Shown piece after piece: positions 60,679 to 61,923 of a stretch of 64,000 nucleotides of DNA; position 1 is the first letter of the stretch, and the number at the start of each line of letters is the position of its first letter. Both the position numbers and the translations under genes were made by a program. Origin of the DNA: a virus. The stretch lies in IMG/VR virus record IMGVR_UViG_3300045741_000352, positions 1 through 64,000 of that record, one strand, 5' to 3'. The notes below the pieces were generated by a model. The model had not been told where the DNA came from, did no database searches, and worked only from the letters and a program-made list of their open reading frames with translations.

Positions 60679-60984
60679 TTAACCGGAGCCGTCGCCGTCG
60701 CCGTCGCCGGAGCCGTAGCCGTAGCCGTAGCCGTAGCCGTCGCCGTCGCCGTCGCCGTCGCCGGAGCCGTAGCCGTAGCCGGAGCCGTAGCCGTAGCCGT
60801 AGCCGGAGCCGTAGCCGGAGCCGTCGCCGGAGCCGTAGCCGTCGCCGGAGCCGTAGCCGTCACCGTAGCCGTTACCGTAGCCGTTACCGTTACCGGAGCC
60901 GTAGCCGTCTCCGGAACCGTAGCCGTAGCCGTAGCCGTAGCCGTCACCGTAGCCGAAGCCGGAGCCGTCGTCTATTCTTTCCAT
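60679..60984 (-). CDS. (Gly-X)n repeat protein, copy 4 (101 aa)
   Basis: ATGGAAAGAATAGAC start and TAA stop. Begins MERIDDGSGFGYGDGYGYGYG. Shares its leader and upstream spacer with copies 2 and 3. Confidence 0.6.
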   Translation of the reverse strand: MERIDDGSGFGYGDGYGYGYGYGSGDGYGSGNGNGYGNGYGDGYGSGDGYGSGDGSGYGSGYGYGYGSGYGYGSGDGDGDGDGYGYGYGYGSGDGDGDGSG

Positions 60985-61003
60985 GTGTATATTTTCACTT
61001 ATT

Positions 61004-61285
61004 TTAGCCGTAGCCGTAGCCGTCACCGTTACCGTTACCGTTACCGTAGCCGTAGCCGTAGCCGGAGCCGTCACCGTTACCGTAGCCGTCGCCGTCGCCG
61101 GAGCCGTAGCCGTAGCCGTCGCCGGAGCCGTAGCCGTAGCCGTAGCCGTAGCCGTAGCCGTAGCCGGAGCCGGAGCCGGAGCCGGAGCCGTCGCCGTCGC
61201 CGTCGCCGTAGCCGTCGCCGGAGTCGTCGCCGTAGCCGTAGCCGTCGCCGGAGCCGTAGCCGTAGCCGTCGCCTATTCTTTCCAT
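61004..61285 (-). CDS. (Gly-X)n repeat protein, copy 3 (93 aa)
   Basis: Begins MERIGDGYGYGSGDGYGYG. Its TAA lies 19 nt before the copy 4 ATG. Confidence 0.6.
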   Translation of the reverse strand: MERIGDGYGYGSGDGYGYGDDSGDGYGDGDGDGSGSGSGSGYGYGYGYGYGYGSGDGYGYGSGDGDGYGNGDGSGYGYGYGNGNGNGDGYGYG

Positions 61286-61304
61286 GTGTATATCTTCGCT
61301 TATT

Positions 61305-61550
61305 TTAGCCGGAGCCGTAGCCGTAGCCGTAGCCGTCGCCGTCGCCGTCGCCGTCGCCGTAGCCAGAGCCGTAGCCGTCGCCGGAGCCGTAGCCGTCACC
61401 GGAGCCGTAGCCGTCACCGGAGCCGTAGCCGTCGCCGTCGCCGGAGCCGTAGCCGGAGCCGTAGCCGGAGCCGTCGCCGTCACCGTAGCCGTAGCCGGAG
61501 CCGGAGCCGGAGCCGTCACCGTAGCCGGAGCCGTTGTCTATTCTTTCCAT
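61305..61550 (-). CDS. (Gly-X)n repeat protein, copy 2 (81 aa)
   Basis: Begins MERIDNGSGYGDGSGSGSGYG. Conserved spacer TAAAATAAGCGAAGATATACAC lies before copy 3. Confidence 0.6.
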   Translation of the reverse strand: MERIDNGSGYGDGSGSGSGYGYGDGDGSGYGSGYGSGDGDGYGSGDGYGSGDGYGSGDGYGSGYGDGDGDGDGYGYGYGSG

Positions 61551-61569
61551 GTGAATATCTTTACTTATG

Positions 61570-61923
61570 TTAGCCGTCACCGGAGCCAGAGTCGTAGCCG
61601 TAGCCGTAGCCGTAGCCGTAGCCGTCGCCGTAGCCGGAGCCGTAGCCGTAGCCAGAGCCAGAGCCAGAGCCAGAGCCAGAGCCAGAGCCAGAGCCGGAGT
61701 CGTAGCCGTCGCCGGAGCCAGAGCCAGAGCCAGAGCCGGAGTCGTAGCCGTCGCCGTCGCCGTCGCCGGAGCCGTAGCCGTCGCCGTAGTCGGAGCCGGA
61801 GCCGTAGCCGTAGCCGGAGCCGGAGCCGGAGCCATAGCCGTAGCCGTAGCCGGAGCCAGAGCCGTAGCCGGAGCCGGAGCCGGAGCCAGAGCCGGAGCCG
61901 TAGCCGTTGTCTATTCTTTCCAT
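61570..61923 (-). CDS. (Gly-X)n repeat protein, copy 1 (117 aa)
   Basis: Begins MERIDNGYGSGSGSGSG. Its ATG overlaps the last codons of the upstream gene (ATGGAAAGAATAG). Confidence 0.6.
   Translation of the reverse strand: MERIDNGYGSGSGSGSGSGYGSGSGYGYGYGSGSGSGYGYGSGSDYGDGYGSGDGDGDGYDSGSGSGSGSGDGYDSGSGSGSGSGSGSGSGYGYGSGYGDGYGYGYGYGYDSGSGDG

Follow-up and report, generated by a model that had tools for sequence, protein, structure and literature searches.

We analysed a 64,000-nucleotide stretch of a viral genome (positions 1 to 64,000 of the IMG/VR virus record IMGVR_UViG_3300045741_000352, hereafter called the window), the minus strand of which carries four consecutive genes for proteins made almost entirely of Gly-X dipeptide repeats (GX proteins). 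Our comparisons indicate that the four are paralogues, arranged in tandem, of the second gene in a conserved phage cassette of two genes, the first of which codes for a DUF6948 protein with a predicted Sm-like fold. We rated this cassette as a new kind of system with a high prevalence; each of its closest analogues fails at least one of its defining features.

An earlier note, made from the DNA alone, had described four consecutive minus-strand open reading frames (ORFs) of 117, 81, 93 and 101 residues, and we confirmed them at 60679-61923. Copy 1 (61570-61923, 117 residues) and copy 2 (61305-61550, 81 residues) begin with MERIDN, copy 3 (61004-61285, 93 residues) with MERIGD and copy 4 (60679-60984, 101 residues) with MERIDD; in all of them a (Gly-X)n stretch follows, and the stop codon is TAA. 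All four ORFs open with ATGGAAAGAATAG(A/G)C, which yields MERID or MERIG, and their 3' ends read GG(C/T)TAA. The distance from each stop codon to the next ATG is exactly 19 nt in the three gaps of the array, at 61551-61569 (CATAAGTAAAGATATTCAC), 61286-61304 (AATAAGCGAAGATATACAC) and 60985-61003 (AATAAGTGAAAATATACAC) of the same strand. This length is not a multiple of 3, and each successive copy lies +1 in reading frame. The spacers resemble one another and the 3' end of the DUF6948 gene upstream of copy 1, and they lack a Shine-Dalgarno (SD) core, which is present at several other genes of the window. The starts, the stops, the SD-less spacers and the overlap of the copy 1 ATG with the upstream gene are thus as first reported.

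The alternation of Gly and X had been called strict. Long runs do exist, with up to 47 uninterrupted dipeptides in the window and 96 in relatives, but a few Gly positions are occupied by Asp (YDSG three times in copy 1 and DDSG in copy 3). The window proteins contain 44-47% Gly; besides Tyr, Ser and Asp there are a few Asn and a single Phe. Each of them contains a single Arg, a single Glu and no Lys; the pI is 4.05, and the masses are 7.5-10.6 kDa. Cys-, Trp-, His- or Val/Glu-rich variants of GX also exist in the family. At the DNA level, Tandem Repeats Finder reported a single hexamer array at 60683-61907 (205.7 copies, score 916), far beyond chance.

The gene upstream of copy 1 (61911-62312, minus strand) codes for a 133-residue protein that matches DUF6948 (Pfam PF22253, E 1.8e-30). 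This family has at least 7953 homologues (E < 1e-5) and is represented in PHROGs by phrog_18306 only, with function unknown. We sampled DUF6948 loci from IMG/VR (44 loci), from GTDB species genomes and metagenome-assembled genomes (MAGs; 80 loci) and from deposited phages, the MAGs being those of Acidobacteriota, Cyanobacteria, Chloroflexota, Ignavibacteria, Planctomycetota, Verrucomicrobiota, Bacillota, CPR, Pseudomonadota and some archaeal bins. Loci with at least 100 nt available downstream were considered evaluable (n=120), and 119 of these 120 have a (Gly-X)n ORF that starts no more than 250 nt downstream. Thus, the upstream gene, which had been taken as incidental, is an obligate partner. 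Furthermore, the distance from the GX ATG to the end of the DUF6948 stop codon is exactly 13 nt in 83 of the 119 loci. The same arrangement is found in the window, where the two genes overlap at 61911-61923 (minus strand) and the sequence of these 13 nt reads V W K E stop in one frame and M E R I in the other. The junction GTATGGAAAGAATAG carries the ATG of copy 1 while ending the DUF6948 frame. This overlap has the features of a translational-coupling junction, and GX expression is probably coupled to that of DUF6948. A programmed-frameshift fusion of DUF6948 with GX was rejected, with no slippery heptamer seen at the junction by inspection and no natural fusion found among ~240 loci.

The reverse search, starting from the repeats, gave a consistent picture. 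The DNA pattern (GGC[GT][AC]C)x6 was searched in IMG/VR, and 94 arrays were evaluable among the matches listed. A canonical DUF6948 gene is directly upstream of 58 of these listed arrays, and ~24 more follow a divergent homologue of 85-110 residues, for a total of ~82/94. The divergent proteins align with DUF6948 at an hhalign probability of 94.8% (E 5e-8), and 7 of 18 match PF22253 directly. True exceptions among the listed arrays are few and mostly correspond to unrelated (GS)n linkers. All-against-all clustering of the neighbouring ORFs at 50 loci showed that only DUF6948 and the gene for GX or its associated C-terminal domain (see below) recur, and that no third recurrent family, be it a modifying enzyme, a transporter or an immunity gene, accompanies the cassette. 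The absence of a modifying enzyme nearby, remarked upon earlier, therefore extends to these loci. We found no copy of the cassette in Escherichia coli genomes.

The overlap also accounts for the common start of the GX proteins. The GX ATG falls within the codons for the conserved V-W pair at the DUF6948 C-terminus (GT-ATG-G), and GX codon 4 overlaps the DUF6948 stop codon, which forces it to NTA or NTG and hence to Ile, Leu or Val. Because of this constraint, one of these three residues occupies position 4 in 54 of the 81 stand-alone GX peptides. Thus, the MERID start is most simply explained as the reading, in another frame, of the DUF6948 C-terminus and stop codon, i.e. as an overlap relic, and the view of it as a conserved leader does not hold. 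Copies 2 to 4 kept MERID and ~19 nt of the DUF6948 3' end because the duplicated unit consists of the spacer, the start, the repeats and TAA. This unit was duplicated three times in this phage, and the idea of paralogous genes amplified by tandem duplication and hexamer slippage is thereby supported. A search of IMG/VR with the exact leader 16-mer returned 11 chance matches, none of them with a GX array.

Most loci harbour a single GX copy. Multi-copy arrays are nevertheless present at loci L023 (three copies), L034 (at least three), L067 (two), L080 (three) and L128 (five). Such arrays arose independently several times, and few of them exceed the four copies of the window. The GX proteins have a median length of 81 residues (range 28-195), and among fused proteins that are 75-92% identical elsewhere, the GX segment varies from ~5 to ~60 residues. 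In two of the four window copies the X residues are grouped in blocks, in line with slippage.

Any (GGCNNY)n satellite necessarily leaves several frames open, and the evidence that the Gly-X frame is the one translated comes from the relatives. The conserved ATG of this frame is tied to the DUF6948 stop codon. In at least 18 loci, GX runs in frame into a conserved domain of ~150 residues, which belongs to a family of 1894-5498 proteins. Gly-X is the only open forward frame in 75 of 114 GX ORFs, and all five other frames are closed in 30 of them. Degenerate relatives have lost the hexamer periodicity while keeping an intact G/S/D/Y/F/N-rich ORF, and the start codon and the GX frame are conserved as the periodicity decays. 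The hexamer itself varies by lineage (GGC-NNC, GGC-NNT, GGT-NNC or GGG-NNC), unlike the amino acid composition. Across lineages, Ser (508), Tyr (478) and Asp (384) at the X positions are far above Cys, Asn, Phe and His, and Ala is rare (14 of ~1660 positions). His and Cys are rare although they are one transition away from the Tyr codon TAY, whereas Ser and Asp are common although they are one transversion away. This imbalance around the TAY mutational hub points to selection on the residues. Altogether, these observations support the four ORFs as genuine protein-coding, translated genes.

They also bear on the alternative that the (GGCNNY)n RNA or DNA is itself functional, for instance as an unstructured repeat RNA wrapped by a DUF6948 ring for autoregulation, similar to TRAP on its (G/U)AG repeats, or as a recombination or replication element, the peptide being a tolerated by-product. 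We regard this as improbable. One point in its favour is the extreme codon uniformity within arrays, which differs from the usage of the genome. Within a locus, the median purity is 1.00 for Gly codons and 0.98 for the third base of X codons; in the window, GGC, TAC and GAC reach 90, 99 and 100% in the array vs 24, 45 and 40% in the rest of the genome, and only TCC or TCT are used for Ser. This uniformity also fits concerted evolution by slippage. In addition, the array RNA is less structured than its shuffled versions, folding worse than all 200 dinucleotide shuffles (z = +5.5), and several frames are open to gene callers. It is also known that Sm-like rings bind single-stranded repeats. Against these points stand the thousands of proteins in which GX is fused in frame to a conserved globular domain, the persistence of start and frame beyond the loss of periodicity, the constancy of amino acid composition while the hexamer changes, and the residue selection suggested by rare His and Cys and common Ser and Asp. 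The earlier note had envisaged that the satellite might be conserved as DNA rather than as protein: the retained frame and start favour the protein, and the codon uniformity leaves room for a nucleic-acid-level constraint. A structured-RNA element was rejected, with Rfam finding tRNA only and the array RNA being under-structured. With so little structure, ribosomes would more readily reinitiate without an SD sequence, 19 nt after each TAA, and copies 2 to 4 are probably translated by termination-reinitiation on the unusually unstructured mRNA.

The fused proteins mentioned above share a common layout, with an N-terminal helix, a hypervariable GX linker and the conserved ~150-residue domain (L025, L037-L055, L125 and L139; proteins P0121-P0267). 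This domain harbours the motifs FAHG, HHxLTGSCxxGR and KDSYG, and the family includes proteins of Prevotellamassilia and of gut phages. The domain has no Pfam, PHROG or NCBIfam match, and its structural model (predicted local distance difference test score, pLDDT, 81) has no fold match in the PDB (best E 0.39). Neither the window nor most loci contain it. When 1.84 billion representative proteins were searched by phmmer for relatives of GX copy 4, only 376 matched, and the 12 that we inspected are GX segments fused to other domains; this yield indicates that stand-alone GX genes are poorly represented in protein collections. Gly-[Y/S/D/N/H] modules were also found fused to DUF7666 (at either end), to 'ADWLEE'-type N-terminal domains and to several unnamed domains (P0277, P0275, P0322, P0329, P0301, P0288 and P0332). 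GX thus seems to behave as a mobile low-complexity module.

Such fusions raise the question of whether GX is simply a passive low-complexity spacer or a near-neutral product of slippage, the stand-alone genes being linkers orphaned by the gain of a stop codon (TAC to TAA). In the fused proteins GX is clearly a linker between the N-terminal helix and the C-terminal domain, and it can be as short as ~5 residues. Moreover, in 56 of the 81 stand-alone peptides Gly is the last residue before the stop codon; 57 of the 81 stops are TAA or TAG, each a single mutational step from TAY, and the blocks of X residues in two window copies would be expected as well. We nevertheless find this scenario hard to credit: in most cases, and across many phyla, GX is a stand-alone protein, nearly all evaluable DUF6948 loci retain it, the C-terminal domain is missing from the window and from most loci, three to five intact tandem copies arose independently several times, and the composition is constrained to Tyr, Ser and Asp.

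We then turned to the partner. In the AlphaFold2 model of the window DUF6948 protein (pLDDT 90), five bent strands are accompanied by a short inserted helix and by another helix at the C-terminus. The protein has a lineage-specific N-terminal helical extension of ~40 residues, the family core being roughly 95 residues. The top 50 Foldseek matches in the PDB are all Sm or LSm proteins, with target-normalised template modelling (TM) scores of 0.46-0.75. The archaeal SmAP1 structure 1i8f aligns over 82 columns with a TM score of 0.75 and a root mean square deviation of 1.9 Å, and archaeal SmAPs generally give about 0.7 and ~2 Å. Matches in BFVD are other DUF6948 proteins as well as phage proteins named 'Sm-like domain' or 'RNA binding protein'. 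The conserved motifs of DUF6948, RTYSAGVF and ARR[IL]WYW with invariant Arg and aromatic residues, are not Sm1 or Sm2. According to the model, DUF6948 thus adopts an Sm-like fold, a strongly bent five-stranded antiparallel barrel, and we do not call it a member of the Sm family.

The best-supported reading of these data, which we hold tentatively and short of calling it probable, is that GX and the Sm-like DUF6948 protein act together by gating or bridging. In the mechanism that we propose, GX would be an intrinsically disordered, net-acidic polymer whose Gly backbone carries Tyr 'stickers' and Asp charges. Were the chain extended, its side chains would lie ~7 Å from one another, much like the bases or phosphates of single-stranded RNA. 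GX might bind multivalently to the Arg and aromatic motifs (RTYSAGVF and ARR[IL]WYW) of an oligomeric DUF6948. It could then gate nucleic-acid binding by DUF6948, by analogy with the acidic tail of Hfq, or it could cross-link DUF6948 rings into a higher-order assembly or condensate resembling a ribonucleoprotein (RNP), by analogy with the low-complexity tails of eukaryotic Sm and LSm proteins. Slippage would tune the valency and length of GX and tandem duplication its dose, the three duplications giving a dose of GX over DUF6948 of perhaps ~4:1.

Several observations weigh against a joint function of GX and DUF6948. Regarding the fold, the Foldseek E-values for Sm and LSm proteins are only ~1e-3, no Sm or Hfq match was found at the sequence or profile level (PF22253 only in Pfam, and nothing with a profile against all PDB sequences), and the N-terminal helix seen in canonical Sm proteins is missing from most members of DUF6948. 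The family is also near neutral (median pI 7.7), which weakens simple charge complementarity, and a charge-complementary coacervate of the two proteins was rejected since DUF6948 is not basic. Regarding the linkage, one GX gene (L060) follows a different small gene, and GX modules are fused to unrelated domains (DUF7666, 'ADWLEE'-type N-domains and the uncharacterised C-domain), so that GX can work without DUF6948 in cis. DUF6948 should thus, with caution, be called the usual partner of GX, not the only one. Finally, the extreme codon uniformity within arrays fits a constraint on the nucleic acid as well.

A more specific version of a joint function is a 'split Sm/FUS' system, widespread in phages, in which an oligomeric, RNA-binding Sm-like ring and a separately encoded Tyr/Asp dipeptide-repeat polymer would build or regulate a membraneless RNP compartment, or sequester host factors that bind RNA or single-stranded DNA (ssDNA). 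We consider it rather unlikely. If true, slippage and amplification would form a built-in rheostat for valency and dose. The comparison with FUS-family low-complexity domains, for which Tyr-Arg contacts are known to drive phase separation, gives mixed results. GX proteins share with them GYG, SYG-like and GYS triplets, Tyr stickers between Gly/Ser spacers and predicted disorder; Tyr represents 13-20% of GX residues and is always flanked by Gly, so that the [G/S]Y[G/S] motif is present. However, they differ by their strict dipeptide periodicity and by ~12% Asp with essentially no Gln, Asn, Pro or Thr (Gln ~0.1% and Asn ~2% in GX peptides), and they do not have the near-uncharged, Q/N/S/G/Y-rich composition of FUS. 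They are also only 28-195 residues long, encoded by bacterial viruses and without an attached RNA-binding domain.

Sm, LSm and Hfq proteins with low-complexity tails are analogues of the cassette as a whole. SmD1, SmD3 and SmB have Arg-Gly dipeptide-repeat tails, the tail of Acinetobacter Hfq consists of GGFGGQ repeats, in Hfq an acidic and disordered C-terminal domain competes with RNA, and the prion-like tail of yeast Lsm4 promotes P-bodies. The small Sm-like barrel, the Gly-rich and partly dipeptide-repeat segment and the variable repeat length are shared features, and the acidic disordered GX segment could likewise compete with nucleic acid. In contrast, GX is a separate, coupled polypeptide, present in four copies here, and is acidic and Tyr-rich rather than Arg-rich. 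DUF6948 is devoid of sequence similarity to these proteins, and its ring formation and RNA binding are putative. The poly-GA, poly-GP and poly-GR products of C9orf72 likewise derive from a hexanucleotide satellite that is open in several frames and yields Gly-X dipeptide polymers. GX differs from them as a conserved, ATG-initiated gene with one selected frame and Tyr, Ser or Asp at X, and not a pathological product of repeat-associated non-AUG translation.

All 81 stand-alone GX peptides are net acidic, with a net charge per residue of -0.02 to -0.29 (median -0.12), and ~15% of their residues are aromatic. This property underlies a possible though doubtful alternative, according to which GX is a free-standing acidic decoy that mimics single-stranded nucleic acid and titrates host ssDNA- or RNA-binding proteins or defence sensors. 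Changes in length and copy number would then reflect an arms race, and DUF6948 would be merely co-expressed or a chaperone. In favour of a decoy are the pI of 4.05, the lack of Lys and the aromatic content, in a family without a single member that is not net acidic, as well as the location of the genes in a replication and nucleotide-metabolism module. The hypervariable length, the repeated independent amplification and the presence of GX modules with other domains and other upstream genes also fit. T7 gp2.5 and the single-stranded DNA-binding protein (SSB) provide a precedent, as their C-terminal tails, which are acidic and contain aromatic residues, compete with ssDNA. However, the near-obligate linkage to DUF6948 with its fixed overlapping start argues for a joint function, PADLOC revealed no likeness to known anti-defence families, and the folded scaffold of the Ocr/ArdA kind is missing. 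GX proteins resemble the acidic SSB tails (T7 gp2.5, T4 gp32 and E. coli SSB), Ocr and ArdA, which act by occupying nucleic-acid-binding surfaces, in their phage-encoded and acidic nature and, for gp2.5 and SSB, in their aromatic residues. Nevertheless, the SSB tails are short extensions of an OB fold, and Ocr and ArdA are folded, rigid mimics of B-DNA, whereas GX proteins are apparent repeat polymers with no homology to them. Neither homology to DNA mimics nor a folded scaffold was found, and acidity alone is common.

The last alternative is that GX proteins are precursors, of the microcin type or of ribosomally synthesised and post-translationally modified peptides (RiPPs), or else silk- or amyloid-like structural proteins forming β-sheets. 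Their Gly/Ser-rich cores resemble microcin B17 or the tails of class IIb microcins, the alternation of Gly is the silk pattern, and the homologue in Ralstonia phage NK-7 is recorded as a 'fibroin heavy chain-like protein'. We judge this very improbable indeed. There is no leader peptide, as the five to six N-terminal residues are an artefact of the gene overlap, and neither conserved modification, export or immunity genes in the vicinity nor, by inspection, a signal peptide were found. Like silk fibroin (GAGAGS/GAGAGY), GX proteins have Gly at every second position over long runs, some Tyr and Ser at X and slippage-prone repetitive DNA. In contrast, their X residues are Tyr, Ser and Asp rather than small Ala or Ser, and they are acidic, short and cytoplasmic, without terminal domains, unlike secreted structural proteins. 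With 12% Asp, and with bulky Tyr on one face, they could not pack into sheets of the silk type, and the genes are found among replication genes, not structural ones. The acidity of the GX sequences is too high for a low-complexity domain of the FUS type, and their bulk and charge are too great for silk.

The GX proteins are unnamed in Pfam, PHROGs and NCBIfam, and PADLOC detected nothing; a below-threshold match to Pfam TrAA12 and a match to the NCBIfam 'serine-rich protein' were dismissed as low-complexity noise. Full-text literature searches retrieved no paper on DUF6948 or on such a cassette, nor is it mentioned in a 2025 paper that deals with LSm-like proteins of T4-type phages. The statement of the earlier note that no phage family like this one has been described therefore stands for these databases and the literature. 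The four GX proteins of the window are also absent from a collection of 15 billion proteins that does contain the DUF6948 protein of the same contig.

This absence contrasts with the distribution of the cassette, which is carried by hundreds to thousands of genomes of phages or prophages, their contigs falling into bins of numerous bacterial phyla and into a few archaeal ones. Cultured phages with the cassette include those of Pectobacterium (phage Ymer, OP748252), Ralstonia (phage NK-7, PP919442), Iodobacter (phage phiPLPE, NC_011142), Vibrio (phage IKEMa6-1) and Chlorobiaceae. The GX gene is nearly invisible: gene callers skip it or misread its frame, low-complexity filters mask it and assemblies break at it. 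Thus, gene_25 of the Chlorobiaceae phage CV-1-33 (L058, 3295-3540) was called in the wrong frame, giving MAMAMALAM, as was the GX gene of a Microcoleus MAG (L060, 5279-5600), giving MALALAMA. In the RefSeq entry of Iodobacter phage phiPLPE, the GX ORF is unannotated between gp84 (DUF6948) and gp83 (L142, 1164-1409). Assemblies often end at or inside the GX array, including many IMG/VR contigs and the Logan contig SRR35487356_12376388 (L141). The latter is an independent 8-kb contig that codes for an identical DUF6948 protein and stops ~40 nt past its gene, just inside the start of the array. By breaking short-read assemblies, the satellite helps to keep the GX family hidden. Tryptic proteomics is also unlikely to detect GX proteins because they have no Lys and a single, N-terminal Arg.

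GX genes flag a systematic gap in phage genome annotation, the cassette being mostly unannotated and undescribed. They represent a natural, conserved, ATG-initiated dipeptide-repeat family that derives from a hexanucleotide satellite and is tied to an Sm-like protein. The availability of several cultured hosts makes pure low-complexity polymers tractable in bacteria, with regard to condensates, nucleic-acid mimicry and anti-defence.

As for the genomic context, the window belongs to a tailed phage, with genes for an SU10-type portal, an SLT-domain protein, a pectate-lyase-like protein and an SNF2 helicase, as well as a class II ribonucleotide reductase (RNR), ThyX and a family A DNA polymerase. 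A DNA search of INPHARED revealed no nucleotide-level relative of the 8-kb neighbourhood among 50,697 deposited phages. The array is part of a long minus-strand block that comprises, in order, the genes for PolA, tRNA-Gln(UUG), DUF6948, the four GX proteins, a 58-residue basic protein and small ORFs, and continues with those for an RHH-like protein and ThyX, further ORFs and then RNR. GX genes thus sit among replication genes, not structural ones, and we infer that the cassette is part of an early or middle operon for replication and nucleotide metabolism.

The tRNA-Gln gene (anticodon UUG; 62610-62685, minus strand) lies between the PolA and DUF6948 genes, with a weak sigma-70-like promoter match directly upstream (62727-62698). 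Scans for promoters and terminators gave no excess over the expectation from shuffled sequences. A link of this tRNA with the array was rejected: it is the sole tRNA of the phage and is unrelated to Gly, Tyr, Ser or Asp codons. Directly after the acidic GX array, the 58-residue protein (60468-60644, minus strand) is very basic (pI 11.0) and its gene has a good SD sequence (GAGGTG); it is not conserved at other cassette loci. The full-length polymerase encoded next to the cassette in the Logan contig (L141, 1-2579) has 885 residues and is a fusion of a uracil-DNA glycosylase-like domain, a 3'-5' exonuclease and a family A polymerase, of which the window holds only the C-terminal part (62734-63981, minus strand).

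Other repeats are present far from the array. Perfect short tandem repeats at 13337-13914, in a mostly ORF-poor region, consist of an 11-mer (6.9 copies), a 96-mer (1.9 copies) and a 25-mer (2.4 copies). They form a cluster with a likewise perfect 30-mer (2.8 copies) at 14389-14471, within the ORF at 14174-16090, and a perfect 21-mer (2.4 copies) at 18126-18176. All of these could be iteron, origin or regulatory repeats. Lastly, a 15-nt repeat (8.3 copies, 88% matches) at 45762-45886 on the plus strand lies within the gene for the 936-residue SLT-domain protein (44820-47630) and would encode a pentapeptide-repeat segment in what is probably an ejected or internal virion protein.

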